A DNA stretch of 64,000 nt from Gemmatimonadota bacterium (GCA_039588915.1 JBDGYV010000006.1:13116-77115), one strand, 5' to 3'; positions 16,353-44,296 are shown, counted from the first letter of the stretch. Made by a program: numbers and translations. The notes: generated from the letters alone by a model not told the origin.

Positions 16353-16354
16353 TC

Positions 16355-16798
16355 TTACTGCTCCGGAATCGTTCCCCAGTGCTCAGAAAACGACCGCATC
16401 CTCGCCCGTAACTCGGGCTCGATCTGGCGTGGCCTGCCAGTCTCGCGATCGATCATCACTTGCACCGTCGTACCACGCGCGACCAGCCGTTCGCTCTGCT
16501 CGTCGAACAGCTCATAGTCAAGCACAAACGAGCTGGCCCCGATTCTCGACAGACGCGCTTCGACACGCACGGTTTCGCGAAGCACCGCCGCCGACACAAA
16601 ATCGCACTCCGCCCGCGCGACCACAAAGTCGAGCACGTCGTACGAGTAATCGTGATGTAGCTCTTGCCAGTACGCGGTTCTGGCTACTTCGAGATAGGTG
16701 AAGTAAACCGAGTTGTTGACGTGACCCATCGGGTCGAGATCCCGGAAGCGTACCGGGATCTTGACATTGAAGTGGCGCGTGGAGGAGTGGCGGCTCAT
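16355..16798 (-). CDS. Acyl-CoA thioesterase, 4HBT/YbgC family
   Basis: Hotdog-fold signature FRDLDPMGHVNNSVYFTYLEVAR. Confidence 0.75.
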   Translation of the reverse strand: MSRHSSTRHFNVKIPVRFRDLDPMGHVNNSVYFTYLEVARTAYWQELHHDYSYDVLDFVVARAECDFVSAAVLRETVRVEARLSRIGASSFVLDYELFDEQSERLVARGTTVQVMIDRETGRPRQIEPELRARMRSFSEHWGTIPEQ

Positions 16799-16858
16799 GG
16801 GAGCGGCAAGCTAATCCTTCGTTCGAAACGACGCCGACCGATTTGGTTGCAACGATCC

Positions 16859-18190: not shown

Positions 18191-18243
18191 CGCCTCCGTT
18201 GGTTGCTGCAAACACCCCACCAGGCTATAATCAGTTGTTACCA

Positions 18244-18693
18244 ATGAGACTATCCAACGAACAGCGCGATAGCTTCATCGCCCAATGCCGGGCGGCTGGG
18301 CTATCGGTAACCCACCAGCGGTTGGCGATCTTTGAGGCGGTATTGGCGAACTGCAATCGCCACCCTTCGGCCGAGATCATTTACCAGACCGTCCGTGAGC
18401 GTTACCCCACGATCTCGTTCAATACGATCTACAAGAACCTCGAGATTTTCGAAGAGCTAGGAATCGTAGTAAAGGTCAACCCGCTTTACAACGAAGCGCG
18501 TTACGATGTCGACGTCCGACCCCACCATCATCTGATCTGCCGTCAGTGCAAGAAGATCGTTGACGTGCACGATGAGAAGCTGGGCCGCGTTCCACCACCG
18601 ATCGACGCCGAGAACGGCTTCAAGGTGGAGAATTGGACGGTCCAGTTCACTGGCCTGTGCGCCGACTGCCAGCCAGCGTCAGCAGTCGTTTGA
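18244..18693 (+). CDS. Fur-family transcriptional regulator (Fur/Zur/PerR-like)
   Basis: Winged-helix N-terminus, HHHLIC motif, and two CxxC pairs (CRQC, CADC) for structural zinc. Confidence 0.85.
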   Translation: MRLSNEQRDSFIAQCRAAGLSVTHQRLAIFEAVLANCNRHPSAEIIYQTVRERYPTISFNTIYKNLEIFEELGIVVKVNPLYNEARYDVDVRPHHHLICRQCKKIVDVHDEKLGRVPPPIDAENGFKVENWTVQFTGLCADCQPASAVV

Positions 18694-23648: not shown

Positions 23649-23666
23649 ACCGCTATTTTCCAGCCT

Positions 23667-29828: not shown

Positions 29829-31064
29829 GTGCGGTTCCTTATCGCGACCGTCATAAAGGACTTGATACGCCGGCGACGGGATCCGATCGCGCTGTTACTG
29901 TGGGCTGGCATCCCGCTCGCGATCGGCGGGCTGATCTTCCTGGCGTTTGGCGGCGACGATGCGGGACCGAGCGGACGATTGCTGGTCGCCGACCAGGACA
30001 ACACAGTGCTCAGCGCGCTTCTTACCAGCGCCTACCAACAAGGTCCGCTAGCCGAGATCATCGAGGTCGAGGCGGTCGAACTCGAGGAGGGACACGAACG
30101 GATCGACGCAGGCGAGGCCTCCGGATTGCTCATCACCCCCGAGGGATTTGGCGCCGCTGTCCTGGAATCCGAACCGTTCGAGATCTCTCTCGTCCGCAAC
30201 CCCGCCCAGCGTATCGTTCCAGGGATCATCGAGGAGAGCTTATCGCTCGTCGTCGAAAGCACGTTCTATTTGCAACGGTTGTTCGGTGAGCCACTTGACG
30301 TCATCGTCGGAACCCGACCGGATGACGCGAATGTGGTGCCCGATTCGACGGTGGCATCAGTCAGCGTGGCTCTTAATCGAATCGTCGATCGCACTCGACC
30401 CTACTTGTTCCCACCCGTGATCGAACTCGGGACGACATCACCAAGTGGAGACGAAGAAGGCTTTGACTTCGCGCGCTTGTTCTTCCCGAGCATGCTCTTC
30501 ATGGCGCTTCTGTTCATGGCACAGGGCTTGAGCGAGGACATCTGGCGCGAGCGGTCGCAGGGCACGCTGCGCCGCGTTATCGCCACGCCGCAACGAGTGG
30601 CGACGTTTCTGGTCGGCAAGCTGCTCGCTGGTGCGATGCTGATGCTGGTCGTAATGGGACTTGGACTGATCGCTGGCAGATGGGTCTTTGGGATCGAACT
30701 CCACGGCCTGCCGATGGCTCTCGTCTGGACCACGTTTGCCGGCATAATGCTGCTGGCGATGATGGTCCTGGTACAACTGTTCGCCTCCAGCGAACGCACC
30801 GGGAACATCTTGACAGGGGTGGCCATTTTCCCGCTGGCGATGCTGGGCGGGAGCTTCTTCCCCTTCGAGGCGATGCCTGACTGGCTGGCCAGCGTGGGCC
30901 GATACACCCCAAACGGGTGGGCGCTGGCGAAGCTCAACCGGGTTTTTGCGGGCGAGTTGCCGGCGCTGGACCTCCTCCAATCAATCGCCGCCGTCGCTCT
31001 CGTCATTGTCGTTCTCGTCTGGCTCGCCATGCGGCGCATCCGTGGCCGCTTCGCTCACAGCTGA
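29829..31064 (+). CDS. ABC-2 family transporter permease
   Basis: N-terminal TM helix, a large periplasmic loop, then 5 TM helices. GTG start 4 nt after the ATPase stop. Confidence 0.75.
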   Translation: MRFLIATVIKDLIRRRRDPIALLLWAGIPLAIGGLIFLAFGGDDAGPSGRLLVADQDNTVLSALLTSAYQQGPLAEIIEVEAVELEEGHERIDAGEASGLLITPEGFGAAVLESEPFEISLVRNPAQRIVPGIIEESLSLVVESTFYLQRLFGEPLDVIVGTRPDDANVVPDSTVASVSVALNRIVDRTRPYLFPPVIELGTTSPSGDEEGFDFARLFFPSMLFMALLFMAQGLSEDIWRERSQGTLRRVIATPQRVATFLVGKLLAGAMLMLVVMGLGLIAGRWVFGIELHGLPMALVWTTFAGIMLLAMMVLVQLFASSERTGNILTGVAIFPLAMLGGSFFPFEAMPDWLASVGRYTPNGWALAKLNRVFAGELPALDLLQSIAAVALVIVVLVWLAMRRIRGRFAHS

Positions 31065-32197
31065 TGATGCTGCGCGCCGCCTGGTTTATCGCCCGTAGCG
31101 ATGTCTCATACTTGCTTCGTCAGCGCGAGACGCTTCTCTGGACGTTCCTGATGCCACCGGTGTTCTTTTTCTTCATCGGATCGGTCACGGGTGGCGGCGG
31201 GTCAGCCCCAAACATCACCGTGCAGAGTCCCGAAAACGCCGGATTCCTCGCCGACCACGTGGTGCGTCGGATCGAGGAGCAGGGCTTCGAAGTCACCCGG
31301 AGCAGCGATCCCGACACGTTGGCGGCGGCGCGCCGTCGACTGATTCTGCCGGCCGGCTTCACCGACTCGGTAGCAGCTCAGAAACCGGTGAAAATCGAGT
31401 TCGCCACTCAGAGCGACGCCGGGGTCGACACGCAGTACGACCAGATTCGGGTCGCGCGAGCCGTCTACGGCGTGTTGGCCGACGTAATCGTCTCGGCGGA
31501 CGCAGAGGGCACCTTCGATCCGGTCGCTATCGAGCGGCTGGCCGACGAACCACGGCCGCTGCAACTGACCGTCTCTCAGGCTGGGAGCCGAGTGGAGATC
31601 CCGACTGGGTTCGAGCAGTCGGTCCCGGGGACGATGGTCATGTTCACGTTGCTGGTCATGTTGACCAGCGGTGCGGTGCTGCTGGTTATCGAGAGGAATC
31701 AGGGTCTGCTGCGCCGGCTCGCATCGTCGCCGCTGCCACGTCGAGGGGTCGTGCTCGGAAAGTGGGGTGGCAGGCTGCTCCTGGGCCTGGTCCAGATCAG
31801 CTTCGCGATGCTGGTGGGCACGCTTTTCTTCAAGATACGATGGGGGCCAGATCTCCCAATGCTACTGGTGATTCTCCTAGCGTGGGGGGCGCTGGCGGCG
31901 GTTCTCGGGATCCTGCTCGGTAATCTGGCGCGAACCGAAGGTCAGTCGATCGGGCTTGGAGTATTAGCGTCTAACATCCTGGCCGCCCTCGGCGGTTGTT
32001 GGTGGCCGATCGAGGTCACACCGCAGTGGATGCAGAGCTTCGCGTTGACGTTGCCGACCGGGTGGACGATGGACGCGCTCCACAAGTTCGTGAGCTTCGG
32101 GGCCGGCGCGACGAGCGTTGTCCCGCACCTGTTCGCCTTGATCGTCGGGACACTCGTTTTGGGATGGGCTGCGGTCCACACGTTCCGCTTTCAGTAG
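31064..32197 (+). CDS. ABC-2 family transporter permease (second, paralogous)
   Basis: The ATG at 31064 overlaps the upstream stop (ATGA). Same topology as the preceding permease. The tracker's upstream extension is rejected. Confidence 0.75.
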   Translation: MMLRAAWFIARSDVSYLLRQRETLLWTFLMPPVFFFFIGSVTGGGGSAPNITVQSPENAGFLADHVVRRIEEQGFEVTRSSDPDTLAAARRRLILPAGFTDSVAAQKPVKIEFATQSDAGVDTQYDQIRVARAVYGVLADVIVSADAEGTFDPVAIERLADEPRPLQLTVSQAGSRVEIPTGFEQSVPGTMVMFTLLVMLTSGAVLLVIERNQGLLRRLASSPLPRRGVVLGKWGGRLLLGLVQISFAMLVGTLFFKIRWGPDLPMLLVILLAWGALAAVLGILLGNLARTEGQSIGLGVLASNILAALGGCWWPIEVTPQWMQSFALTLPTGWTMDALHKFVSFGAGATSVVPHLFALIVGTLVLGWAAVHTFRFQ

Positions 32198-32200
32198 TGG

Positions 32201-32965
32201 TTACCAGCGTCTAGCGACGCCAAAGCCAACGAGTATGTCCGGTGCGTCGTCGGTGAGCCCGGCGCCAATGCGTGCATCGAGCTGGAAGTTATTGCTAACG
32301 AGATACGTGATCCCACCGTTCAACGTCGTGTCATCGCCGGTCCCGTCACCGGCCGGGAAGATGGTGAACGCCTCGACGTAGGCTCCGGTCCGCTCGGTTA
32401 GACCGACGCCGAGCGCCACGCTCGCCGATCCCTGATCGAACCGCTCGCCGGCCTCGCTCGCGTAGGTGTACCCGACGTTTGCACCGAGCCCAAGCTGCTC
32501 CGATAAATCCCACGCGAACGCACCCGTAACTCCGGGCTGCCAGGTGTCCTCGGTCACTTCGTCGCTACCGGCCGGCAACGTTGTAACAGCCAGGACGGCG
32601 ACGGCTGGTCGCCAACCCGCCTGACCGGCGCCCTCCGTCAAAACGATCTTGATGCCGAGCGACGGATCCTCCACGCCTGAGTCATCATCCCCTGGCTGCT
32701 CGACCCACGCTATCGATGCGCCAATCCGTCCCTCGACGCGTTTCATAATGCCGATCCGTAGCAGTGCCTCGCCGAGCGAATGCTCGTTGACATCGCCGCT
32801 CTGGGTGAAGGTGTAACCGGCTTCGAGCTGGAACTGACCGGGTGTGACCGCCGACGCGCTCTCAGTGAAGTCGGGTCGGTCGGTGATCAGTGCCTCTAGT
32901 CTCTGGGCGGACAGCGGCCCTGCGCTGAGCACGATCAGCGCTAGCAGTCGAGACAAAACCCTCAT
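32201..32965 (-). CDS. Outer-membrane beta-barrel of the MetA-pathway-of-phenol-degradation-like family
   Basis: Signal peptide and DRPDFTES…GQFQLEAGYTF N-terminal signature. Alternating beta-strand pattern ending in aromatic residues. Confidence 0.6.
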   Translation of the reverse strand: MRVLSRLLALIVLSAGPLSAQRLEALITDRPDFTESASAVTPGQFQLEAGYTFTQSGDVNEHSLGEALLRIGIMKRVEGRIGASIAWVEQPGDDDSGVEDPSLGIKIVLTEGAGQAGWRPAVAVLAVTTLPAGSDEVTEDTWQPGVTGAFAWDLSEQLGLGANVGYTYASEAGERFDQGSASVALGVGLTERTGAYVEAFTIFPAGDGTGDDTTLNGGITYLVSNNFQLDARIGAGLTDDAPDILVGFGVARRW

Positions 32966-33043
32966 GGGGTTATTTTAGTGCAAGCTAATTATCGTTGCAA
33001 GCCTCTAGCTCGCAACAACCTACGAATCAACTCGGGAGCTGCG

Positions 33044-33589
33044 TCACTCCATGCAGAGGGCGTAACGCGAGAAGTGGCTCAGCTCGGCGCGGACGACGTT
33101 CTGCCCCCGAACGTAGACCGCCTCATCAACGATCGCCCAATCATCGACATCGTCCTGAGCTACCGCGATTCTCAGCTTAGAGAGACTGACGCCCGTAAGC
33201 TCGGCGCTTGCAGCGTTGATCTCCAGGATCGCTGGTTGGCTGAACTGTAGCCCGTTGGGACCATACAGGAATGACACCGTCCCGTCGGACGACTGGGCCA
33301 TGCTGATCCATAGATCCGTGGGTATCGAATTGGGGAGAATCGTCAGGGAAGCGTCATCCGTTGAGAGCGTCCCGCCGACCTCCTTCTCGATCCACTTCGC
33401 TTCAAGGTCGTTGGCGACCCGCAGCTCCAAGCCGTCCTTGAAGGTGAGCAGCTTGACGCCGTTGACGGTGACAAACTTGGGAAAAGTCCCCGTTGGGGAG
33501 GTCGGGCCCGTTTCGTCGCCACAAGCCGTCAGCGAAATCACGGCGAGGGTCATGACGATTCCGCAAAAGAATTGCCAGTACTTCCTCAC
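33044..33589 (-). CDS. Lipoprotein of unknown function
   Basis: Lipobox LAVISLTAC. No recognised domain. Confidence 0.5.
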   Translation of the reverse strand: MRKYWQFFCGIVMTLAVISLTACGDETGPTSPTGTFPKFVTVNGVKLLTFKDGLELRVANDLEAKWIEKEVGGTLSTDDASLTILPNSIPTDLWISMAQSSDGTVSFLYGPNGLQFSQPAILEINAASAELTGVSLSKLRIAVAQDDVDDWAIVDEAVYVRGQNVVRAELSHFSRYALCME

Positions 33590-33814
33590 TTCGAATCAGC
33601 TCCTCTGGGGGATCGGTTCGCCGAGGGGGGGTCATCCAATGCGTTGGCAACACTCGCGCCAACCCTCGGCTCCGCCTACATAATCGGGCCCAAGCCATTG
33701 TTGAGCAATAGGTTAGAGGACTGGGTGGAAATCTTTTTCACTCCCCAAAGGAACCTCTTTTCCTATCGTTTTGAGATGGTTCGTTGCAGCTAGGGCGTAA
33801 CGAGACATTACGCC

Positions 33815-34933
33815 TCAGCGATCCACCCAATCGGCGACGAAGACGTTTGTGTCCCCCGGCTTGGCGTTGTGGCGGTTGGAAGCCCAGACGAGTTTCGAAC
33901 CGTCAGAGTTGAACATCGGAAAACCGTCGAAATCGGGGTGCGTGGTGATCCGGGCGAGACCGGTGCCATCCACGTTGACGGCATAGAGGTCGAAGTTCCG
34001 ACCTTCGGGATCGTGCATGTTGCTGGCGAAGATGATGCGCTCGCCGTCGGGGAAGAAATAGGGTCCAAAGTTGGCCCCACCGTTGTCCGTCACCTGTCGC
34101 TTGTCGGAGCCGTCAGCGTTCATGACCCAAAGCTCCATCACACCCGGTCGCACCAGGTTGTCGGCCAGCAAAGCGCGGTAATCGGCCAGTGCGCGCTCCT
34201 CCTGGGGGTGGTGTGCGCGGTAGACGATTCGTTGGCCGTCGTACGAGAAGAACGCTCCACCGTCGTACCCCTCCTCGTTGGTCAGCCGCTGCACATCGCT
34301 CCCATCGGCGTTCATGGTGTAGATGTCCAAATCGCCGTCACGTACCGAGGTGAAGACGATCTTCGATCCATCGCGGCTAAACGTCGCTTCGGCGTCGTAT
34401 CCCGATACGTCGCTGAGTCGTGTGAGTTCACTCCCGTCGGGCTGTGCGGTGAAGACATCGAACCCCGAGTGAATTGGCCAGACGTAACCCTGGCTGTAGT
34501 CGGGGCGGGGCGGGCAAGCCTCGTCGGCCAGGTGCGTCGAAGAGAAGAGAATCCAGTCGCCCTGGGGATAGGCAAAGTAGCTACACGTCGTTACGCCACG
34601 GCCCGTGGATACCATGCGCTTCTCCGATCCATCGGTCCGCATGGTGAAGATCTGGTCGCAGCCGAGCGAGTCAGGCGTGGCCTGGAAAATGAGCCATGCG
34701 TCATCGGGGCTGAAATACGCCTCCGCGTTCTGGCCCTCAAACGTGAGTTGCTGGAGATTAGCCAGGTATTTCTCCTCTTCGGGCTGGGGCGCTACAATTG
34801 TGGTTTCAGTCTCGGGGGTTGGCGCTGGATTCTCGCCGGCTTCGCTGCACGCAAACGCGGCCGCGGCTGTGCACAGGATTCCAATCTTGATGCGTGTCAT
34901 TTTCCCTTTCTCGCTTCCTTGTTCGTTATTCAC
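33815..34933 (-). CDS. TolB-like periplasmic beta-propeller protein (PD40/WD40-like repeats)
   Basis: Repeated FSPDD…, FSRDGSKIVFTS…DIY…DGS, FSYDGQRIVY and similar PD40 repeats. Signal or lipoprotein N-terminus. The start is probably the internal M at about 34900. Confidence 0.75.
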   Translation of the reverse strand: MNNEQGSEKGKMTRIKIGILCTAAAAFACSEAGENPAPTPETETTIVAPQPEEEKYLANLQQLTFEGQNAEAYFSPDDAWLIFQATPDSLGCDQIFTMRTDGSEKRMVSTGRGVTTCSYFAYPQGDWILFSSTHLADEACPPRPDYSQGYVWPIHSGFDVFTAQPDGSELTRLSDVSGYDAEATFSRDGSKIVFTSVRDGDLDIYTMNADGSDVQRLTNEEGYDGGAFFSYDGQRIVYRAHHPQEERALADYRALLADNLVRPGVMELWVMNADGSDKRQVTDNGGANFGPYFFPDGERIIFASNMHDPEGRNFDLYAVNVDGTGLARITTHPDFDGFPMFNSDGSKLVWASNRHNAKPGDTNVFVADWVDR

Positions 34934-34955
34934 GAATTTCCATGGACGGAAAACT

Positions 34956-36263
34956 ATGAAGCCATCTCTGATCGTTCTCGTTCTCGCCGCGCTGGCGTCA
35001 CCGCTCTGGGCCCAGGACCGCCAAGGAGATCACTGTGCCAACGGGGATTTTCCCGCATCGTCGGAACCTGAGATTACCACCGCCGGGATCTGTGCCACCA
35101 TCGCGGTGCTTGCCGCCGACTCGCTCGAAGGCCGGGAAGCGGGTAGCGCAGGAAGCGATCGCGCCTCCCAATACCTTGCCGAGCGCTTTCGCTCGATCGG
35201 GCTGGAGCCGCTCAATGGCGATTTTCTCCAGTCGTTTACGTTTTCGGCCGCAGTGCGCCGAGACCCCCACGCGAGTCCGCACCCGTCCTCCGACAGCGAT
35301 GCCATCTTGTCGACGGCCAATATCATCGGGATCGTACCCGGCATCGACCCGCGGTTGGCTGACCAGGCGGTCGTCATCGGAGCCCACTACGACCATCTCG
35401 GATTCGGCGGCCGGGGGTCGTTGGCGCCTGGTGAGCGAGCGATCCACAACGGAGCCGACGACAACGCATCCGGAGTGGCAACGTTACTCGAGCTGGCGCA
35501 GCAATTCGCGGCACGTCCAATGGCCAGAACGCTCATCTTCATCGCCTTTGGTGGAGAAGAATTGGGCACCCTCGGGTCGCAGTACTACATCGCCCACCCC
35601 CTGTGGCCGGTCGAGCAAACGGTCGCCATGCTGAACCTCGACATGGTTGGCCGGCTGCGGGAACAGGTGACGGTCCACGGCACGGGGACCTCGCCCGCCT
35701 GGGCGGCGATACTCGACGACCTGGACGCCGAGGGCTCGCACCCGACCATGGCGCGTGTGCCGGATGGATTTGGGCCCAGCGATCAATCGTCGTTTTACGG
35801 TGCTCAGATCCCGGTGCTTTGGTTTTTCACCGGTGCCCATGAGCAGTACCACCGACCCACCGATGATCTGGAGACGATAAACGGGGCTGGAGCGGTCCGA
35901 GTCGGAAGCCTTGTGTCTGCGATCACCGAAACGATCGCCAGCACCGGGCTCGAGATTCCCTATGCAGTAGCCCCCACGACTCAGCGCCGGGCGGCGGCCT
36001 TCTCGGTCGGCCTGGGAGTCATCCCTGAGTACAGCTTCCCTGGACCAGGTCTCAGGGTGGCTTCGGTGCGGCCGGGTGGGCCGGCGGACAAGGCGGGAGT
36101 TTCGGCTGGTGATGTGCTGCTCAAGCTTGCCGATCGCGACATCGAAGACGTCTACGGTTACACCGCGGTGCTGTCGGATCTCGAGGCGGGTATTTCGTAC
36201 ACGCTCGTCTATGAACACGAAGGCGAGCTCCACACGGTGTCTGTGGAGCCCGCCTCGCGCTGA
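34956..36263 (+). CDS. M28-family zinc aminopeptidase with a C-terminal PDZ domain
   Basis: Signal peptide. M28 core (VVIGAHYDHLGFG…NGADDNASGVATLLELA…FGGEELGTLGS). The C-terminal PDZ reads LRVASVRPGGPADKAGVSAGDVLLKL. The true ATG at 34956 lies inside the tracker ORF. Confidence 0.8.
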   Translation: MKPSLIVLVLAALASPLWAQDRQGDHCANGDFPASSEPEITTAGICATIAVLAADSLEGREAGSAGSDRASQYLAERFRSIGLEPLNGDFLQSFTFSAAVRRDPHASPHPSSDSDAILSTANIIGIVPGIDPRLADQAVVIGAHYDHLGFGGRGSLAPGERAIHNGADDNASGVATLLELAQQFAARPMARTLIFIAFGGEELGTLGSQYYIAHPLWPVEQTVAMLNLDMVGRLREQVTVHGTGTSPAWAAILDDLDAEGSHPTMARVPDGFGPSDQSSFYGAQIPVLWFFTGAHEQYHRPTDDLETINGAGAVRVGSLVSAITETIASTGLEIPYAVAPTTQRRAAAFSVGLGVIPEYSFPGPGLRVASVRPGGPADKAGVSAGDVLLKLADRDIEDVYGYTAVLSDLEAGISYTLVYEHEGELHTVSVEPASR

Positions 36264-36282
36264 CTCTAACGCCGCTGACAGG
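36204..36282. repeat. 79-bp direct repeat, copy A (the native 3' end of the M28-PDZ gene plus 19 bp downstream)
   Basis: About 91% identical (7 mismatches) to 37376-37454. Confidence 0.85.
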
Positions 36283-36327
36283 CCGGCCCCCGCGAGACCG
36301 ACCAGGAACCCGTTCAAGGACTGGACA

Positions 36328-37371
36328 ATGAGGGATAAGCTGCGCAGCAATGTCTCGCCGATCGCCTTAGCCGGGTTAGCCATTGCGCTGTTTGCTGTGC
36401 CCACGAGCGCCCAGAAGACGGACGTTCTTCTGCTCTCCAACGGCGATAGCGTGACCGGCGAGATCAAGAGTTTCGAGCGAGGCAAGTTGAAGTACAGCAC
36501 CGACGCGATGGGTACGGTCTCAGTCGAGTGGCCAAAGATCATAAACCTTACGACCGCCAAGACCTTCCGCGTCACGCTCGAGGATGGCACGATACTGTTC
36601 GGGTCGATGCAACCAGCGGACGCGCCGGGCAGGGTTTCGATCATCGTCGATCGCGAGACGATCGAGGTTCCCACTCAATCAGTCGTCAAGATGAAACGGA
36701 TCAAGTCGAATTTTGGCGGGACCTGGACGGGAGCATCGACCTGGGGCTCGATTTCAACCAGGAGGACGGGCAGACGGACCTTAGCCTCAACACCGAGATT
36801 GTTCACAGAGTCAGCCTGCGCACCGTCAAGCTCCGTGGGAGTGCTTCCGTCGACCGTCGGGACGACACCGACAACATCACTGAGTTCACGACACGACTCT
36901 CGTACATAAAGGACTTCGGGCGCCGCTGGTTCTATCTCGGTTCGGTTTCAGCCGAAGAGAACTCGCAGCTGAAGCTTGACCTCCGCTCGTCCGTCGGTGG
37001 TGGGTTTGGGCGCTACATAATTCGGTCAAACAGAGTGATTCTCTCTGTATCAGGGGGGGGCGGGCTACGCCAGCGAGCAGTTCGAAGACGTCGGCCGCAT
37101 TAACTCGTGGCCTGCCGTGTTCATCACTGAGTTTGAGTTCTTCAGTTGGGGAGGCCTCGAGTCCGATCTCTCAAGCCGCCTGGCTGTTCTCCCGATGCTG
37201 GATCAATGGGGACGCTGGCAGGTCGACTTCGTAACGAATCTCCGGCATGAGATCGCGAACGACTTTTACATCAACGTCGGACTGAAGGAGTTTTTCGACA
37301 ACGAGCCGCCGATCGAGATAGACAACAGGAATGCTTTCAGCGTGTCGACTTCGCTTGGCTGGTCCTTCTAG
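36328..37371 (+). pseudogene. DUF481 (YdiY-like) outer-membrane beta-barrel protein gene, disrupted by two frameshifts
   Basis: Three consecutive frame segments read as one DUF481 protein: a signal-peptide N-terminal domain (36328-~36710); the GSIDLGLDFNQEDGQTDLSLNTE core (to ~37055); and …AGYASEQFEDVGRINSW…FSVSTSLGWSF ending in an aromatic residue (to 37371). The shifts are at a T3 run (~36708) and a G8 run (37053-37060). Local GC (~52%) is below the window average. Confidence 0.55.
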
Positions 37372-37375
37372 CGAA

Positions 37376-37454
37376 CTCGTCTATGAGCACGAAGGCGAGT
37401 TCCACACAGTGTCTGTGGAACCCGCCTCGTGCTGACTCTAACGCCTCTGGCAGG
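37376..37454. repeat. 79-bp direct repeat, copy B (a relic duplicate of the M28-PDZ gene 3' end)
   Basis: Still translates as LVYEHEGEFHTVSVEPAS-stop, which matches the peptidase C-terminus. It lies between the DUF481 stop (37371) and the DUF4097 gene end (37458). Confidence 0.85.
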
Positions 37455-37457
37455 GTT

Positions 37458-38252
37458 TTAGTTCCGCGCTAGCTCGATGCTGCCGTTCACGGTTTGCATC
37501 TCGAGTCGGCCGCCTCCGGTCCCGATCGAACCCTCGATCCGGCGAGGTCCCCAACGCTTCCCGGCGGCAACCGCCAACGGAAAGTCGCTATTCAACCCAC
37601 CGTTGACGGTCTGGGCCACGACGCTGGCGTTGACATCGGCCGGGAGCCCCACGTTTATCGACCCGTTGACCGTGTGCAATGAGAGCGTCCCGTTCCATGT
37701 CCCCTGACCCATCGAAACGTCGATCGCGCCATTAACGGTGTGGGCTTCTACCGTGCCCGTGCCGGAGGCACTCACGGCTCCGTTTACGGTATGGACGCGA
37801 ACGTCACCGCGAAGTGAGTTGGCTTCGATCGCTCCGTTGACCGTATTGCCTACAAACTCGACACCGGCCGGCACTCGAACGGTGAAATCCACGGCGATGT
37901 CGTTCTTCTTTAACTTCTTATCGTAATCGCCGCGGTCCTCGTCGCAGGCGCCGCTGACACCACCCTCTCTGAGCGGATACGCCGCGCAAATCCGGACGCC
38001 ACCAGCGTGCTCGACAACCACAATCTCGACCTCGTTTGGATCGCTCTTCTCTGCGTGTCGAACCGCCACTAGCTCAACTGTCGATCCAGTCGCGGGCATG
38101 GCGTCGATCTCACCGTTTAGCCCCCGAATCTCGAGCGTCTTGCCGGCCTCGATCGCGCCCTCCCACCGAAACTCTGCTGTCCGTTGCGCCACCAGCGTCG
38201 CCGGCAGAGTGGCCAGTAGGGCCAGTGTGAGGAGTGTTCTTGTGAAGTTCAT
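37458..38252 (-). CDS. DUF4097 (putative adhesin / YvlB-like) beta-helical repeat protein, secreted
   Basis: Signal peptide and repeated HTVNGAI…/…VNGSI… units. Confidence 0.7.
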   Translation of the reverse strand: MNFTRTLLTLALLATLPATLVAQRTAEFRWEGAIEAGKTLEIRGLNGEIDAMPATGSTVELVAVRHAEKSDPNEVEIVVVEHAGGVRICAAYPLREGGVSGACDEDRGDYDKKLKKNDIAVDFTVRVPAGVEFVGNTVNGAIEANSLRGDVRVHTVNGAVSASGTGTVEAHTVNGAIDVSMGQGTWNGTLSLHTVNGSINVGLPADVNASVVAQTVNGGLNSDFPLAVAAGKRWGPRRIEGSIGTGGGRLEMQTVNGSIELARN

Positions 38253-38267
38253 TCGTCTCTCCCTCTC

Positions 38268-39149
38268 TTATCGATCCGAACGCTTTAGCAGGATCGCGCC
38301 ATTGAAGGTCTCGAGCTCGATTTGAGCGTCTCCTGAGCCCAGCGTGAACGTCGTCGACTTCCCGGGCTCAGCCTCGGTCACCGTCACCGGGAAGTCAGCC
38401 TCGAACTCACCGTTGTAGGTGAAGGCACTGATGGTGGCGTTGGCACCCCGCGGTATCGTGATATCGATCGTCCCGTTGTGGGTCTCCATGCTGTACCACC
38501 CATCGGAATGAATTGGGCCCCGAAAAACGATCGCACCGTTGACCGAGGATGCCTCCAGATTATGAGCATCGCAGCGCTCGAGCGTGACCGGACCATTCAC
38601 GGTCGTCGCCTCGATGTCGCCAACCACATCGGTCAGCGACACGAACTCGTTGACCGAGTGGGCCTCAACGCGACCACGGGCACCGGTCAGTTCGATGCCA
38701 CCCTCCACTGATCCGACCTCGATCGTGTTCCGCCCGCCGTTGACGCGAACCAGCCCCTTCATCGAGTGCGCTTCGATCCGTCCAGTCGTGCCCTCGATCG
38801 AGATGCGGCCTTCAATCGTGTGCGCCTCGATGTCCGCATCCACCGGGATCGTGAGGGTAAAGTCAGTCGCACGACCCTGGCCGTGAACCATCTCGGCCTC
38901 GACGCTCACCTCGGAGTCGTTGCTGTCGAAGTGCACATCCGCCGCACCCGTGGCCTGAACGCGGACCGCGTTTCGATCCCATGTACTGATGGTGATGTCG
39001 CCGACCATGTTGTCAACTTCGATCGTAGCGTTGGCACCCACCGAGAGCAGCGTGTCTACTGCGGCCTGCGGTCTCGCGGTCGCTGGGCTCAGGGTGATCA
39101 ACGCAAATCCAATTACAACTGTGATGTATCGCATCGGAATCCTCCTCAT
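38268..39149 (-). CDS. DUF4097 (putative adhesin / YvlB-like) repeat protein, secreted
   Basis: Signal peptide and repeated …EAHS(V/M)…G.I.. units, paralogous to the downstream gene. Confidence 0.7.
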   Translation of the reverse strand: MRRIPMRYITVVIGFALITLSPATARPQAAVDTLLSVGANATIEVDNMVGDITISTWDRNAVRVQATGAADVHFDSNDSEVSVEAEMVHGQGRATDFTLTIPVDADIEAHTIEGRISIEGTTGRIEAHSMKGLVRVNGGRNTIEVGSVEGGIELTGARGRVEAHSVNEFVSLTDVVGDIEATTVNGPVTLERCDAHNLEASSVNGAIVFRGPIHSDGWYSMETHNGTIDITIPRGANATISAFTYNGEFEADFPVTVTEAEPGKSTTFTLGSGDAQIELETFNGAILLKRSDR

Positions 39150-39865
39150 ATCGATGTTCGAATGATGCTCGTAGCTTGGCGCACGACATCGAGCTTCCGC
39201 TGTCGAGCACCGGCCAGATAGTTGTAGAGCTGTGTGCTTTCCGGATCGGCATCAATCGCCTCGACGATCTCCTCGATCGCCTGATCGATCGCCGTCAGGT
39301 TGGCTTCCACGGTGGCCACCGTCTCGGGGTCCAATCGATCGCGGTACATCGCCAGGAGCTCCTCGAAATCAGCCACCGCGGCATCCTCAGCGACGTCTGG
39401 GGCTGGACATTTTCGAGGGATGCCGAGGAACGTGCAGTCGAGGCTCGCTAGCTGCGTGGGGGTCGCACTGTCGGGTTGCACGGCGGTTACCGGCGGGCCA
39501 CCATCGGTGCCGCGCTCGGCTCCCGATCGCGCCCACCACGTCGCGCTGACCGACAGAACGATCAAAGCCACCGCTGCCGCTGCCATCTGCGGCAACGTAA
39601 ACGAGAGTAGGCGTCGGGCGCGGTGTGTTTCAACCGATACCACCATCGATCGATCCTCGAGCCGCTCTTCGATTCCACTCCAAAGTTCGTTCTCCGGCGG
39701 CCGGTCCTCGAGCGACCGTGCCTGAACGACGATCCCTCGCAAATCGGCGAGCACCCTCTGACAATCGGCGCACGTTTCCAAATGGTGCTCAACCGATGTC
39801 CGCTCGGCGGCATCCAGGTCGCCATCTATATAGGCCGACAAGCGTTCTGTAGAATGCTCACTCAT
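39146..39865 (-). CDS. Zinc-finger (ZAS-type) anti-sigma factor with a TM helix
   Basis: HLETCADCQRVL motif, a TM segment MAAAAVALIVLSVSATWWA, and a 4-nt overlap with the downstream gene. Confidence 0.7.
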   Translation of the reverse strand: MSEHSTERLSAYIDGDLDAAERTSVEHHLETCADCQRVLADLRGIVVQARSLEDRPPENELWSGIEERLEDRSMVVSVETHRARRLLSFTLPQMAAAAVALIVLSVSATWWARSGAERGTDGGPPVTAVQPDSATPTQLASLDCTFLGIPRKCPAPDVAEDAAVADFEELLAMYRDRLDPETVATVEANLTAIDQAIEEIVEAIDADPESTQLYNYLAGARQRKLDVVRQATSIIRTSI

Positions 39866-39875
39866 TATCCGACTC

Positions 39876-40394
39876 CTAGGCGGTTAACTGCTCGCGCAAC
39901 AGCATGCGCGCGCGATGGAGCTGGGACTTTGATGTTCCAGCCGCGATGTCGAGCAGGTCAGCGATCTCATCGTGCTTGTATCCCTCGATGTCGTGGAGCA
40001 CGAACACTTCTCTGGCTTTTCCGGGCAGCGTTTCGATCGCGGCTTCCATGTCGACGCTGATCTCGGTCGACGCCGGGCGGACTTGCACCCGCTCCACCGG
40101 TTCATCCGTAGCCGCGTACCTCTCGCGCTCACGGGACTTCGTTTTTCGGTGTCCAAGCATCACGTTTATCGCCACCCTATGTAACCAGGTTGAGAACGCT
40201 GCATCGCCACGAAACGTGTCGAGCTTTTTCCAAGCCAGCACGAACACGTCCTGTGTCAGCTCGTCGGCTTCCTCCGGTCCCACCATGCGCCGCGCCAAAC
40301 TGTGAACGCGCGGTACGTGGTCGTGGTACAAGCGTTCGAACGCCCTTGCGTCGCCCTCGGCAGCCAGCCGAACATCTGTCGTCGAGCCCGTCAC
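39876..40394 (-). CDS. ECF (sigma-70 family) RNA polymerase sigma factor
   Basis: Region 2 (FERLYHDHVPRVHSLARRMVGPEEADELTQDVFVLAWKKL) and region 4 (HDIEGYKHDEIADLLDIAAGTSKSQLHRARMLLR). Confidence 0.85.
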   Translation of the reverse strand: MTGSTTDVRLAAEGDARAFERLYHDHVPRVHSLARRMVGPEEADELTQDVFVLAWKKLDTFRGDAAFSTWLHRVAINVMLGHRKTKSRERERYAATDEPVERVQVRPASTEISVDMEAAIETLPGKAREVFVLHDIEGYKHDEIADLLDIAAGTSKSQLHRARMLLREQLTA

Positions 40395-40499
40395 CTCGGG
40401 CGATGTCTCTCTCGCAAGTATGGTCTCTCCGCGGCCAATGATTCGTCATACACCCTATTGGAGGGGCCAGGGGAGGAAAAGGTTGGAATCGGGGGGTTC

Positions 40500-41039
40500 T
40501 CAGACCCCGTCAAGGAGGGATCGGTAGACGGCGAGGTCGGAATCGGTGAACAGGACGAAGCGGACCAGCCGCACCGAGCCGGGATCCGCCAGCCACTCCC
40601 GGACCGCCCCCACGGCCACCGGGGCGGCGTGGTCGATCGGGTACCCGTAGGCACCGGTGGAGATCGAAGGGAAAGCGACCGAAGCCAGTTCGTGTGCGTT
40701 GGCCAGATCGAGGGCATGGACGTAGCAGCTCCTTAGGAGCTCGGGCTCACCGCAATCGCCACCTCGCCACCAAGGCCCGACCGCGTGGATGACGTAACCG
40801 GCGAGCAGGTCATGGCCGCCGGAGATCCTCGCCTCGCCGGTGGGACACCCACCCAACTTTCGACACTCTTCCAGCAGTTGTGGGCCCGCCGCCCGATGGA
40901 TCGTACCATCGACACCACCGCCACCGAGCAGGGACTGGTTGGCGGCATTCACGATGGCATCGACTTGCTGGTGGGTGATGTCACCAACCAGCGCCTCAAT
41001 GGCGGACGTGCTCAATTCGTCGCCGGCGCCTCGATCCAA
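40500..41039 (-). CDS. Macro-domain protein (O-acetyl-ADP-ribose deacetylase / YmdB-like)
   Basis: [34 protein letters not shown] and [12 protein letters not shown] motifs. Confidence 0.8.
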
Positions 41040-41548
41040 TCCGGCATCGGGTTCTCGTCGCGTACTTCATCCCAAGCGATCGACACCACGTACCACCGAT
41101 CGCCATCGGTGACCAGTGTGATGGTGTTGATGCCGTACGTGAACGGCTCTTCATCGACAGCATTGCGTGACTCGTAGGCGCTCATCGCGTTGGCGACGTT
41201 GCCGAATCTGAGCCGAACGTAATCCTCGTAAGTAAAGACTCGCGCCGGGTGGCTCCCATCGGGCCTAGGCACCATCGCCGACAGCACCGCACCAGGTGCG
41301 AACAGCGAGCGGAACCGATCCCAATCCCGCTCTCCCGCCGGACCCGAGATCACGTCGTAGAGGGCTGCGATGATGGCGTCGATCGACTCGACATCGGCCG
41401 GATTGGCCTCGGGGTGAGCGGGGGTTTCCGGTTGAACCGTGGCATCGGCCTCGGCGTTCGCTTTGGCCTCGTCGTCCTGCGCATGCGCCGGGCTAGCGAC
41501 TCCGAATGCGCCGAGCACGATGCCCGCTATGAGAAGCTGCTTCCACAT
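41012..41548 (-). CDS. Secreted protein of unknown function, possibly with an NTF2/SnoaL-like fold
   Basis: Signal peptide [23 protein letters not shown]. Overlaps the macro-domain gene start by 28 nt. No confident family assignment. Confidence 0.5.
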
Positions 41549-41644
41549 AGTTCTTTCCTCGTTGAGATCGTTACCGCTTACAGGCTATTGGAGTTGAGCC
41601 CGTGCAAGATAGAACGGTCCCCGGGCAGACCCAAACGTGGGGAA

Positions 41645-44296
41645 CTAGAACGGAACCCAGTAGGTGAACTTGACGGCGAAGACGTTATCGCCGTCGGCGG
41701 TGAATGCGTCGAGCAGGTCGCCAGGCGCGACTAGCGCCCCTCGAGTGTCATCTTCGGAGCGATTCTGTTGCCACACGACGAACAGCGTGCTTCCCGGGCT
41801 CCACTCCCACCGCAGGACCAGGTTGCTCCGGAACGACAACACATCGAAGTCGGGGTTATCGAACGAGAACGACTCGCCTCCGACGCTGACGTCGTAGTTG
41901 CCGTCTTCGTCTCGCGTGATCGTCCCGTCATCCTCACCGTAGACCAAGAGATCGTTGGTCCTCGGGGCGGCCAGCTCCCCGACCCCAAAGTACCGCCCAC
42001 TCGATGCGAACGGTTCGGCGTATAGCTCGAGGTTCAGATCGGGTGTAAACGAGTAGTTGGCGCGCAGCGCGGCCGCGATCTCGCTACGATCGATGAAGCC
42101 AAACACATAGCGGCTGCCAAACGTCGCTTCGCGACCGTCATCGAAAGAGTCGATGAACTGTCGCGAGTCCCGACGCCTCACGTACCGAGGCTCGGCGGAG
42201 ATCACCAACCGATCCGAGGGCTGGTATCGGAATTCGGGGTCGACTCGGTACTCCCAGCCGCCGATCTCGTTGCGGCTGAGAAGGAAGCGCGTCCCCCAGC
42301 GATTGGGGCTGTTGTGGTTGCTGAACAGGCCTCCCACAACCCAGAAGCTGCTCGGGTTCTCCATGAGCGGGCCACCGCGCGTCTGGGTGTCGCTCTGGTA
42401 TCGGAAGTTGTGTCCCACCTCGAAGAAACTACGCATGAAGTTGAGGAACGTGGCGTTCGCGAAGACGCCCACGTTCTGGTTTCTGTTGACGCCATCGAAG
42501 TTCCACCCCTGGTTCGTAAAGACGCCCATTTCCCAGTTTCGGAAGTGGTCGCCGGGGTCGGTCTCGGTGTACCGGATGTTGCCCCACGCGTTGGCCTCGT
42601 CGGCGTGGCCAAGGCGGCCCACGTCGTTGACGTCGAACCCGGGGGATTCCATCCACACGCCGTGGCCCCAGCGCCAGTTTCCGGTCCTCTTGCCGCCCCG
42701 TAGAGAAGCCGTCCAGCCGGAGAGCGATTCGCGTGTCGGATCGACTTCCACGTGATCTTGGTCGGGTCGCTGATAGTAATGAACGCTGCTCTCCTGTAAC
42801 TCGAGGATCGCCTCTGGAGAACCACTCACGTGACTGAATCCTGCGTGACCCAGGATCTCGTACCAGCCGTCGGTAAACCGCTTGTTCCAGTCGACCCCGC
42901 CGGTGATAGCCTGCTGGGGGAGGGAATCGGCCAACTCGCTTCCTGACTCGAGACTGCGGTTCACGCCGGTGAGCGTAACGCCAACCGTGGAAGCATTCTC
43001 GCCTATCTGCTGCTGCAGGCGAAGCACTCCGTACGTCGTCGTAGGCTCGACATCAACTTCCCCGATCTCGTCGATCCCAGTGTCAAAGAACTGGGCTTTC
43101 TCGTCATCGGTCACCGCCGCCAGGGCGCCGATCGTTAGCCCTGACTCCAACTGACCGGTCATCTTGGCTGCGCCTATGATCGTGGTCGTGCTGGGCGCAT
43201 TGACAAAATCGTGGTCCGGCTCATTATGCGGCGGCGCTCCGATCCGGCGCGAGTAGTAATAGTCGGGCCCCACGCCATCGAAGTTTTGCTGCCCAGCGGT
43301 GAAGAACGGTCGGCGCTCGTCGAAGAACGTCTGAAACGCCGAGAGGTTGACCTCGGCTGGATCGGCCTCGACTTGTCCGAAATCAGGGTTGATCGCGGCG
43401 TCGAGGGTGAGGTTCGGTCCCAACCCCATCCGGAAGTCGAGACCGGTTCGAGCGTCTCCGTCAGTGGTCTCACCGAACGGGTCGTCCGCGTCGATTAGAT
43501 CCTCCGATGTCATCGTGGTGGAGCCGGCCACGTAGGGAATCAGCTCGATACGCTTGTTTGACGGCAAGTTGTTGAGGCCGACTAGATCGCCAAACCGCGA
43601 CGCCCAACCGGTCTCGTCGCGGGGCACGATGATCCAGAACGAATCCTCGTTGATCGCCGGCACATACCGATTGATGTTCACCCCCCACACCAGCTCCTTG
43701 CTGCGGTTAAAACGAAGCTGCGAGAACGGGATTCGCATCTCGGCTGTCCAGCCACTGTCGGTCACATTTGCGCGGGCAGTCCAAACCGGATCGAACGTGA
43801 AATCGCGCTGGAACTCGTGATCCACGGGATGGAAGTAGTCGACCCGCACACCGGCCGCCGTGACCGCAAAGTTGTACGCGGTGCGTCGATCGAGAAACGT
43901 GTCGAGCGAAACGATCAGCCGCTCGGCTTGTCCGGGATCGTCCCGGCGCGTCATCAAGTTACCGATCGTGGCCGGGTCATCGCTGTGCATGCGAGCGCCG
44001 ACATAGAGTGCTTGATCGTCGTACAGAAAAGCGACCTCTGTGTCGAGACTCGCCGGCTCTCCCTGATCAGGCTCCTTTTGGATGAACTTGGTGACCCACC
44101 GGGCTGTCTCCCACACGGACTCGTCTAGATGGCCATCGATCGACGGCGACCCGCCCGATACGCGGGCGACCTCGATACGCTTGCGCTGGTTACTATCCCG
44201 TGGGAGGTCTTCGGCACCACCGGGGCTGCTCTGAGCGAGCGCGGCCGACGGCCACAACATCAGAATGGCGATCGCTACACGGAAGATCATCAACAC
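41645..44296 (-). CDS. Large outer-membrane protein: N-terminal CBM9-like carbohydrate-binding domain plus DUF5916-type beta-barrel
   Basis: 883 aa with a signal peptide. N-terminal region IDGHLDESVWETA…FLYDDQALYVGARM typical of CBM9-like/DUF5916 proteins. C-terminus …KFTYWVPF ends in Phe, an outer-membrane barrel signature. Confidence 0.65.
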   Translation of the reverse strand: MLMIFRVAIAILMLWPSAALAQSSPGGAEDLPRDSNQRKRIEVARVSGGSPSIDGHLDESVWETARWVTKFIQKEPDQGEPASLDTEVAFLYDDQALYVGARMHSDDPATIGNLMTRRDDPGQAERLIVSLDTFLDRRTAYNFAVTAAGVRVDYFHPVDHEFQRDFTFDPVWTARANVTDSGWTAEMRIPFSQLRFNRSKELVWGVNINRYVPAINEDSFWIIVPRDETGWASRFGDLVGLNNLPSNKRIELIPYVAGSTTMTSEDLIDADDPFGETTDGDARTGLDFRMGLGPNLTLDAAINPDFGQVEADPAEVNLSAFQTFFDERRPFFTAGQQNFDGVGPDYYYSRRIGAPPHNEPDHDFVNAPSTTTIIGAAKMTGQLESGLTIGALAAVTDDEKAQFFDTGIDEIGEVDVEPTTTYGVLRLQQQIGENASTVGVTLTGVNRSLESGSELADSLPQQAITGGVDWNKRFTDGWYEILGHAGFSHVSGSPEAILELQESSVHYYQRPDQDHVEVDPTRESLSGWTASLRGGKRTGNWRWGHGVWMESPGFDVNDVGRLGHADEANAWGNIRYTETDPGDHFRNWEMGVFTNQGWNFDGVNRNQNVGVFANATFLNFMRSFFEVGHNFRYQSDTQTRGGPLMENPSSFWVVGGLFSNHNSPNRWGTRFLLSRNEIGGWEYRVDPEFRYQPSDRLVISAEPRYVRRRDSRQFIDSFDDGREATFGSRYVFGFIDRSEIAAALRANYSFTPDLNLELYAEPFASSGRYFGVGELAAPRTNDLLVYGEDDGTITRDEDGNYDVSVGGESFSFDNPDFDVLSFRSNLVLRWEWSPGSTLFVVWQQNRSEDDTRGALVAPGDLLDAFTADGDNVFAVKFTYWVPF

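Follow-up and report, generated by a model that had tools for sequence, protein, structure and literature searches.

A decaying DUF481 outer-membrane gene between two copies of a peptidase gene end in a Gemmatimonadota bacterium

Introduction

How does a single outer-membrane gene come to lie between two copies of the 3′ end of its neighbour? We address this question in a 64,000-nt window from a Gemmatimonadota bacterium (GCA_039588915.1, JBDGYV010000006.1:13116-77115; the window is the whole stretch that was analysed, and coordinates are counted from its first letter). Here, a broken DUF481 (YdiY-like) gene separates an M28 peptidase gene from a convergent operon that encodes an extracytoplasmic function (ECF) sigma factor. 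The gene is flanked by direct repeats of a 79-bp junction, which we designate S and which consists of the last 60 nt of the peptidase open reading frame (ORF) plus the 19 nt that follow it. The two copies of S are referred to as A and B, the 1,093-bp insert between them as X, and the full arrangement as A-X-B. In the following, we show that X was gained laterally from a sister clade and that the same segment at a second chromosomal locus bears traces of an older arrangement next to the peptidase gene, and we argue, with modest confidence, that the window lineage acquired it by recombination through sequence homologous to the 3′ end of its own peptidase gene.

A broken gene between two copies of a junction

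The M28 peptidase gene (34956-36263, plus strand) is intact and encodes a protein of 435 aa with a C-terminal PDZ domain (Pfam Peptidase_M28, E=1.4e-41; PDZ_2, E=3.3e-9). Copy A (36204-36282, plus strand) is the native end of this gene, comprising the final 60 nt of the ORF with its stop codon, followed by the 19-nt tail, as a first-pass annotation of this DNA had proposed. Copy B (37376-37454, plus strand) contains the same peptidase 3′ end and tail, detached from the ORF and adjoining the stop codon of a DUF4097 gene. The copies are gapless direct repeats with 72 of 79 positions identical (91%), in agreement with the identity given earlier, and are spaced 1172 bp apart. A 33-nt core of the repeat occurs twice in the 64-kb window, both times within these copies, against a chance expectation of 0. 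Two details of the earlier description are corrected here: copy B translates as LVYEHEGEFHTVSVEPASC-stop, including a final Cys that had been omitted, and 3 bp rather than 4 bp separate its end from the DUF4097 stop codon (37458-37460, opposite strand).

The insert contains a single DUF481 gene (36328-37371, plus strand), preceded by a 45-nt leader (36283-36327, plus strand). Once its frame is conceptually repaired, the gene encodes a product of 347 aa that matches PF04338 in Pfam (E=3e-14, 54 bits with a cut-off of 21.1, profile positions 14-209 of 210), bearing out the proposal that a YdiY-like beta-barrel gene lies between the repeats. This product aligns end to end with intact homologues of 352 aa and is 82-89% identical to the homologues P0001-P0003; when aligned with 13 homologues, its gaps are confined to the variable N-terminal leader. 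In its near-full profile coverage, its signal peptide and the conserved GWSF motif at its C-terminus, it resembles members of the DUF481/YdiY family (PF04338), from which it differs in its broken frame.

The frame is broken twice, as had been noted before. Alignment to three orthologues (in relatives L012, L001 and L010) places the first frameshift in a T4 run (36711-36714, plus strand), where one nt is lost from the AAC/TTTTTGG of the orthologues, and the second in a G8 run (37053-37060, plus strand), where one nt is gained relative to the G7 of the orthologues. The -1 and +1 shifts cancel, limiting the out-of-frame stretch to 36715-37052, and a premature stop is reached in the entry frame at 36907-36909. 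Instead of the uninterrupted frame of a functional gene, this copy thus combines two frameshifts with an early stop; the frame is lost past residue ~129 and the barrel cannot be made from it. The leader is homologous to the 5′ leader of DUF481 orthologues at a porin locus (described below) and has a 2-nt and a 16-nt deletion, the latter eliminating the first ATG of the orthologues. At their gene start, the orthologues carry a near-tandem 16-nt repeat (AAGGAAAAGGACGATG / AAGGAAAAGACGATG; L001 5985-6016), resulting in two in-frame ATGs; at 36315/36316, the window has one diverged copy of this repeat, and its gene starts at the second ATG.

The occupied site is found on 7 contigs of the window population, three of which were read back and are 99.97-100% identical to the window. 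The T4 run, the G8 run and both junctions are shared by these three (L007-L009), which stem from three assemblies of the Joint Genome Institute (JGI). Because the lesions recur in three contigs from three JGI samples, both the frameshifts and the overall structure are real, fixed in the window population and no assembly noise. Repeats can produce mis-joins, and a chimeric join through A and B would be a technical explanation of the locus; we give it next to no weight, as both unique junctions (36282|36283 and 37375|37376) are found again in independently assembled contigs of three samples, and as A and B, with 7 differences between them, do not reach the length of typical reads or k-mers. Nor do homopolymer errors appear to be general across the window: the overlapping long ORFs at 7982-10187 (VTT, SBP_bac_5) and 16237-18693 (FadL-type, FUR) are separate intact genes. 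Other homopolymers of at least 7 nt are found in the 64 kb only at 8514-8520 (G7), 33625-33631 (G7) and 55494-55501 (C8).

Judged by these lesions, the DUF481 copy is a pseudogene, in line with the earlier description of a decaying gene. Its inactivation is recent relative to its divergence, since the ratio of nonsynonymous to synonymous divergence (dN/dS) in pairs that include the window (0.37-0.40) is no higher than among intact copies. The same ratio could point to a gene that is still expressed, either through ribosomal or transcriptional slippage at the T and G runs or as a phase-variable gene switched by tract length. Each lesion falls in a homopolymer and the two offset one another (-1, +1), and a G8 tract within an outer-membrane gene is the classic layout of a contingency locus. 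Continued expression is nevertheless highly improbable, because the T4 and G8 runs are invariant in L007, L008 and L009, because two recoding events of low efficiency would both be required at sites of which neither is a canonical slippery heptamer, and because the entry-frame stop and the loss of the orthologues' first start codon would remain.

Occupied and empty sites

In six related lineages, the peptidase stop codon is followed by 19-22 bp and then by the DUF4097 stop codon, with no DUF481 gene in between, a single copy of S and collinear surroundings. The synteny of the peptidase orthologues is conserved and their identity to the window protein ranges from 80 to 93%: 93% (amino acids) in L005/L006, 89% in L052, 84% in L035-37, 83% in L045-47, 82% in L013 and 80% in L038-44. 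Because the junction between peptidase and DUF4097 genes is uninterrupted in all six, the presence or absence of DUF481 is best described as an insertion polymorphism that is occupied in the window lineage only. The syntenic comparison suggested by the first-pass annotation thus returns relatives in which DUF481 is absent and the peptidase gene and sigma operon are adjacent.

For the comparisons that follow, we distinguish two groups. Group 1 consists of the window, L005 (peptidase gene 89.6% identical in nucleotides) and L052, which is joined by its identity profile. Group 2 consists of the other four lineages, whose peptidase genes are 83-88% identical in nucleotides among themselves and 78-80% identical to those of group 1. 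From an ABC transporter gene to a DUF5916 gene, the gene order of the window is collinear with that of L013 except for X. The neighbours of the insert are the peptidase gene, two DUF4097 genes and the anti-sigma factor, sigma factor, Macro and PD40 genes; no integrase, transposase or other mobility gene is found in the insert or within the collinear ~14 kb.

A gene from the sister clade

The synonymous divergence (dS) of X between the window and intact copies is 0.144 for L012, 0.218 for L001 and 0.235 for L010, and the intact DUF481 copies differ from each other by a dS of ~0.2. For the flanking peptidase and DUF4097 genes, dS is 0.63-0.96 against group 2 and 0.20-0.32 against L005, in which X is absent. 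Since the divergence of X falls within the diversity of the intact copies and far below that of the host flanks, the gene is laterally derived from a sister-clade (group-2-type) gene pool within the same order, Gemmatimonadales. The closest copy is that of L012 (GCA_023142455.1), whose contig breaks off within the gene, with 93% nucleotide and 89% amino acid identity. The earlier suggestion of a foreign outer-membrane gene holds with respect to lateral origin, but not with respect to a distant donor. The P0086 lineage was considered as a donor and ruled out; the C-terminus reads ELHTVPVEPAAR and the site is empty.

Base composition had previously been taken as a sign of foreign origin, with an estimated GC content of ~52% for the insert against a background of ~65%. 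The computed values are 57.7% for the insert and 61.9% for the window (SD 2.0 for windows of the same size), placing the insert in the lowest 2.8%. The GC content at third codon positions (GC3) of the DUF481 gene is 75.6%, compared with 68-76% in neighbouring genes and 75-76% in the intact orthologues, whose overall GC content is 57.1-57.8%. Because GC3 matches that of the neighbours and the orthologues share the same GC content, the composition of the insert is no sign of foreignness and most likely reflects the amino acid composition of its product. The other patches of lowest GC content in the window (56-57%) are located at 17551-17951 and 23501-24101; one is located in or beside the gene for another beta-barrel protein of the outer membrane (FadL/Toluene_X), in keeping with an effect of amino acid composition, and the other extends across the boundary of a PglZ response-regulator gene and an ABC transporter gene.

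Wider searches add little to this set of orthologues. When metagenomes were scanned with the single repaired protein, only one locus was returned, which duplicates L004, and a scan of GTDB species representatives with an alignment as query returned only paralogues (at most 56% identity), none of them beside a porin, aminotransferase or peptidase gene. Several DUF481 paralogues are present per metagenome-assembled genome of the Gemmatimonadales.

A second home beside a porin gene

The intact DUF481 orthologues (L001-4, L010/11 and L012) are located between a Porin_O_P gene and a pair of genes for an aminotransferase and a prephenate dehydratase (PDT). Homology between this porin locus and the window begins at 36279, at the end of copy A, continues through the gene and its stop codon, and extends into copy B, reaching 37429 in L001. 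The porin-locus module thereby includes remnants of the peptidase gene on both sides of DUF481. Upstream, L012 retains 153 bp (400-552) that match the peptidase gene at 35822-35974 (80% nucleotide identity, and 78% over 51 aa, E=8e-24). Of this relic, L001 retains the final 49 bp and L010/L011 nothing, with nested deletion endpoints at one spot. Downstream, L001 retains 45 bp (7063-7107) of the peptidase 3′ end (corresponding to 36214-36258), which are 95.6% identical to group-2 peptidase genes. In L010/L011, ~13 nt of this downstream relic are kept, followed by a deletion of ~1.1 kb that takes most of the aminotransferase gene, reducing it to its last 45 codons (L010 2910-3173). A right junction that arose from microhomology only was considered and not retained: in L010/L011, the 13 nt that follow the DUF481 stop codon resemble the beginning of the peptidase fragment, which is short because that lineage's aminotransferase deletion cut it off.

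As the peptidase fragments are ordered and oriented on both sides of DUF481, the porin-locus module must have been copied from an arrangement in which DUF481 lay beside or inside the peptidase gene. Such a peptidase-adjacent arrangement thus predates the copy in this genome. The earlier view of the locus as the footprint of an insertion or of duplicative recombination is upheld by the six empty-site lineages as far as insertion is concerned; the older arrangement could not be seen from the sequence by itself. A sister-clade relic was also considered as the direct ancestor of copy B and ruled out, since copy B has the diagnostic bases of group 1 and the L001 relic those of group 2.

The porin locus has empty alleles as well. 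In L048, the porin gene stands directly beside an intact aminotransferase gene. In L049-51, it stands beside the first ~68 nt of the aminotransferase gene (L049 3759-3861), followed by PDT; the breakpoints of this reduced gene are unlike those of L010/L011. Homology breaks at identical points in L048 and L049-51. In the occupied allele, the module is flanked by a duplication of ~115 bp, consisting of the aminotransferase upstream region plus about 17 codons, of which the complete left copy is preserved in L012 and the right copy in L001. This duplicated sequence, the 5′ region of the aminotransferase gene, is unrelated to S. Accordingly, the DUF481 gene has moved between two loci, each time with a long duplication that left the neighbouring gene whole and each time with clean empty alleles. 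In L012 (GCA_023142455.1), the left edge of the module also forms a predicted chimeric ORF of 84 aa (353-607), created by the insertion, in which the duplicated aminotransferase start (MGRFSEIPSFSIDQVE) is joined to the peptidase relic (FFTGAHE...PYAVAP) and the DUF481 leader.

How the insert arrived

We favour, with modest confidence, the reading that A-X-B was acquired by recombination through sequence homologous to the lineage's own peptidase 3′ end. The window lineage would then have received an existing A-X-B block, or a circle of X plus S, rather than building the structure from nothing. By one route, a ready A-X-B would have been imported from an unsampled relative by homologous recombination, the crossovers lying near 35610 on the left and within S on the right. 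By the other, circular X plus S, the product of an A x B excision elsewhere, would have integrated through a Campbell-type single crossover. Both routes would yield direct repeats without a transposase or integrase. Integration of this kind has a precedent in Escherichia coli conjugation, where a single crossover of a circle with a short homologous segment produced flanking duplications of 109-950 bp in most integrants (PMC3240628).

This reading draws on the junctions, on the sequence to the left of X and on the differences between the copies. The X|S junction lies at the same position in the window and in the porin-locus module, and the bases of copy B are those of group 1 where the L001 relic has those of group 2; the common position implies a shared breakpoint, and the group-1 bases imply a locally derived repeat sequence. 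Over the last ~650 bp of the peptidase gene (35610-36282, plus strand), the window no longer groups with its sister L005. From 33815 to ~35600, the pairing of the window and L005 is supported by ~40 informative sites, that of L005 and L052 by 5 and that of the window and L052 by 4; at 35615-36263, the first pairing has 0 such sites and the second has 5. Identity to L005 is mostly 90-97% further upstream, 88-91% just left of X, and 91-99% to the right of copy B. The differences between A and B are numbered #1-#7, five of them in the formerly coding part and two (#6 and #7) in the tail. Copy A agrees with L005 at #1, #2, #4 and #5, and copy B agrees with L005 at #6 and #7, where A is the changed copy; at #1 and #4, the state in copy B is that of the sister clade (group 2). 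Six of the seven sites are compatible with a single crossover that fell between positions 55 and 71 of the repeat, although selection on the coding copy and on a hairpin within S (described below) could give the same result. The pattern is the one expected if A and B were reciprocal hybrids from a crossover inside S.

Several points weigh against this reading. A donor with A-X-B is absent among the sampled genomes, and a circular form was not seen. The evidence is split between the two routes: the coding part of copy A differs from L005 at 2 of 60 sites, which favours a resident origin and a single crossover over import of a whole block, and the switch at ~35610 favours import over a single crossover. 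The window is a mosaic in its identity to L005 at other places as well (for example 87-93% at 31946-32945), so the switch beside X could be an unrelated recombination event. The repeat pattern is also expected from selection alone, with A constrained by coding and B free except in the stem of the hairpin. Finally, homologous recombination leaves the first A-X-B and the ~115-bp duplication at the porin locus unexplained; a replicative template switch or the fill-in of a long-staggered break may be candidates for these.

The same candidate processes could have acted in the window lineage itself, in which case the repeats would have arisen in situ as a true duplication of the target, an account that we find unlikely. 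A template switch of the kind known as microhomology-mediated break-induced replication (MMBIR) or fork stalling and template switching (FoSTeS) might have let the nascent strand exit the peptidase tail at CAGG(G), copy X from donor DNA and return 79 bp upstream; alternatively, a DNA fragment may have been captured at a break with 79-nt staggered ends that were then filled in. The porin locus offers a duplication of comparable length (~115 bp) with no homology to guide it, and junction motifs are shared, namely CAGGGT in the empty-site tail and at the left X edge of the donor-type locus, and CTCGTCTATGAAC versus CTCTTCTGTAAC at the right edge. In addition, the stable hairpin of S could stall replication, and substitutions and indels are dense just to the right of the left junction (36283-36291). 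Two independent events would, however, not be expected to share an X|S breakpoint, which is the same at both loci despite the sister-clade S fragment in the porin module. Likewise, copy B has the sister-clade state at two of the four coding-part differences from A and L005 (a rough estimate of p about 0.01 if it were a fresh copy of A), and the signal switch near 35610 would go unexplained.

If instead A-X-B were ancestral to the window, L005 and L052, or older still, the empty sites would be deletion scars left by repeated, precise loss between A and B, and the window lineage would be the last to keep the arrangement. The porin-locus relics do prove an older peptidase-adjacent arrangement, 79-bp direct repeats would delete precisely, the single copy in L005 resembles A on its left and B on its right, and copy B looks ancestral at #1 and #4. 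We nonetheless think this scenario quite unlikely, for it needs at least three independent precise losses in place of one gain, and the dS of X between the window and L012 (0.144) is lower than that of the flanks between the window and L005 and much lower than that against the sister clade, so that X would still need a recent exchange. A non-autonomous cassette, moved in trans by a recombinase or transposase with S as attachment site or 15-nt inverted repeats as ends, would account for X boundaries that are identical at two loci. An imperfect inverted repeat (12 of 15 positions; 36291-36305 / 37359-37373) does lie within 2-8 nt of the ends of X, and a hairpin repeat after an ORF loosely recalls the shape of an integron attC site. 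We consider such a cassette very unlikely, given that no recombinase gene is present in or near the insert, that the duplicated sequence is 79 bp long at one locus and ~115 bp long, with a different sequence, at the other, which rules out a single attachment site and is unlike site-specific recombination or the 2-15-bp staggered cuts of transposases, and that the porin module took peptidase DNA from beyond the ends of X, which were thus not recognised as ends. On reading of the sequence, there are no R''/R' core sites of attC type, the right arm of the inverted repeat coincides with the conserved coding end (GWSF-stop), and 34 comparable inverted repeats occur in 1.3 kb; the inverted repeat is probably due to chance. 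Its arms sit 8 nt (left) and 2 nt (right) inside X, the left arm within a ~40-nt leader that is identical in L012, L001 and L010.

A repeat that probably serves two neighbours

Recombination through the peptidase 3′ end, the reading we favour, would explain how the repeats arose; why both copies have persisted may be explained by the DNA on the other side of the insert. The convergent operon (37458-40394, minus strand) has the same gene order in all relatives and comprises, by Pfam and all on the minus strand, a DUF4097 gene (37458-38252), a second DUF4097 gene (38268-39149), a gene for a zf-HC2 anti-sigma factor (39146-39865) and the ECF sigma factor gene (39876-40394). On the minus strand, a hairpin with a 20-bp stem and a 7-nt loop, formed by S, starts 24 nt past the DUF4097 stop codon. 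In copy A (36214-36261), the predicted energy of its core is -35.6 kcal/mol on the minus strand and -25.2 kcal/mol on the plus strand, with z=-3.9 for a 93-nt minus-strand context. Copy B (37386-37433, minus strand) has the most stable version, with -36.0 kcal/mol for the core on the minus strand and -45.7 kcal/mol (z=-5.0) for a 96-nt context. Over six folds of minus-strand or copy-B context, z-scores range from -3.3 to -5.5, compared with -1.19 for the plus strand of copy A. The minus-strand RNA hairpin is ~4-15 kcal/mol more stable than its plus-strand counterpart in all eight peptidase-locus sequences (8/8), because three positions that form G.U on the minus strand are A.C on the plus strand. 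Across these 8 sequences, 96% of the cells are paired, against 36-54% in slid-partner controls. The hairpin of the porin-locus relic is weaker (-22.9 kcal/mol) and partly deleted.

The differences between A and B respect this structure. Together, #2 and #4 change a C-G pair to U-A, and group 2 has U.G at the same pair; #1 and #5 each convert a G.U pair into a Watson-Crick pair in copy B; and #3 falls in the loop. Four of the five differences in the formerly coding part (#1, #2, #4 and #5) thus lie in the stem and keep or improve its pairing. As pairing is preserved at every stem difference, copy B probably serves the sigma operon as its 3′ hairpin and is not dead DNA. This revises the statement that copy B is attached to no gene: it provides a conserved, probably functional minus-strand hairpin kept beside the DUF4097 gene. 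The C-terminal coding sequence of the peptidase would then double as a predicted 3′ hairpin (terminator or stabiliser) of the convergent operon. Both copies of S may have been retained since S would serve two neighbours, providing the C-terminus of the peptidase on the plus strand and the hairpin of the sigma operon on the minus strand, and an insertion between them may be tolerated only with a duplicated junction. The seven mismatches had also been read as a sign that the event was not recent. Because four of the five coding-part differences fall in the stem and keep or improve pairing, and because two match the sister-clade allele, the mismatches are a poor clock and lend that dating no support.

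Some results weigh against a role in termination or a conserved RNA structure. As in an intrinsic terminator, a GC-rich hairpin closely follows the stop codon, yet the U-tract directly 3′ of the stem is absent, the stem being followed by CAUAGACGAG, and a scan for promoters and terminators found nothing, with 0 terminator sites. Covariation is non-significant, its score being reached in 307 of 500 shuffles, with 8 sequences in which most columns are fixed by coding. Rfam returned only a chance match to mir-128 (E=0.99) for 30000-44000.

Other variation near the locus

Further differences between lineages are found close by. A hypothetical gene of 181 aa (33044-33589, in the region 32946-33845) is present in the window, L013 and L035 and missing from L005/L006 (L005 4783-4860), which corresponds to an indel of ~800 bp with a MetA-like outer-membrane gene on one side and the PD40 gene on the other. 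Upstream of PD40 in the P0091 lineage (L038, L039 and L042), a Tad-domain gene (PF13400, 264-397 aa) takes the place that the 181-aa and MetA-like genes have in other lineages. In L038 (5132-5858), the second DUF4097 gene is split into two ORFs of 111 and 141 aa, and in L039-L041 of the same lineage it is a single gene of 286 aa; one sample probably contains a frameshift or an assembly error.

Comparison with known systems

Campbell-type integration and homology-facilitated illegitimate recombination (HFIR) are alike to this locus in that an insert is flanked by a direct duplication of a homologous segment, relatives have a single-copy empty site and no enzyme of an element is needed. Unlike in Campbell-type cases, the anchor here is only 79 bp long and about 90% identical, neither donor nor circle was observed, and homology cannot have guided the ~115-bp duplication at the porin locus. 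In its classical one-ended form, HFIR usually removes recipient DNA of about the size of the insert, with 3-10 bp of microhomology at the illegitimate joint (PMC3240628); here, a duplication is found in place of a deletion.

The locus also resembles integrative elements that use gene ends, in that the target gene remains whole and its 3′ end recurs beyond the insert as a displaced and slightly diverged copy. The elements e14 and phage 21 in icd of E. coli integrate in the 3′ end of a protein-coding gene and bring a replacement 3′ end; such elements encode an integrase and are tens of kilobases long. The insert described here differs from them in that it consists of a single gene for an outer-membrane protein, that genes for tyrosine or serine recombinases are absent from it and its surroundings, and that a different target, unrelated to S, is duplicated at the other locus. 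Insertion sequences, transposons and miniature inverted-repeat transposable elements are no better match, as the duplications are 79 bp and ~115 bp long, there is no transposase and the only inverted repeat is an imperfect one of 12/15.

MMBIR and FoSTeS produce templated insertions with local duplications, although we know of no demonstration of either in this phylum. Copying in of a distant segment, a duplication at the return point and short motifs shared at the junctions are all alike here, and the porin locus shows a similar patchwork of target, peptidase piece, X, peptidase piece and target. The X|S breakpoint common to both loci is unlike such processes, arguing for descent from a single event rather than repeated switching.

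Meaning for gene movement in Gemmatimonadota

For the most part, this case is a good and fairly ordinary example of known processes: lateral gain among relatives, a flanking duplication and pseudogenisation. Less common are the relics of a former neighbour that were carried to a second locus and the long target duplications at both loci. The case documents the gain of a single chromosomal gene without a mobile-element gene, with occupied and empty alleles at two loci, and the 'luggage' from a previous location lets the order of moves be read from sequence alone. It also illustrates how an argument from low GC content would misassign the origin of a gene, where synonymous divergence relative to the flanks gives the right answer.

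A more speculative idea, which we hold to be improbable, is that DUF481 and its long direct repeats constitute a recombinase-less 'shuttle cassette'. Such a cassette would exit by recombination between its 80-120-bp flanking repeats, thereby restoring a clean empty site, and would re-enter by a replicative route that duplicates about 80-120 bp of its target, so that the gene end and regulatory hairpin there survive. Scraps of old neighbours that are carried along might later steer it, in other lineages, back to a place next to the orthologous neighbour. Should such a process be general, bacteria without obvious mobile elements at the site would have a new means of moving ordinary chromosomal genes.

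The locus further illustrates how insertions are constrained where convergent genes are tightly packed: if an ORF end also provides the 3′ hairpin of the operon facing it, both neighbours would be spared only by an insertion with a duplicated junction. None of this overturns current understanding; the value of the locus lies in a worked example of gene gain among relatives and in a pointer to long target duplications in Gemmatimonadota.

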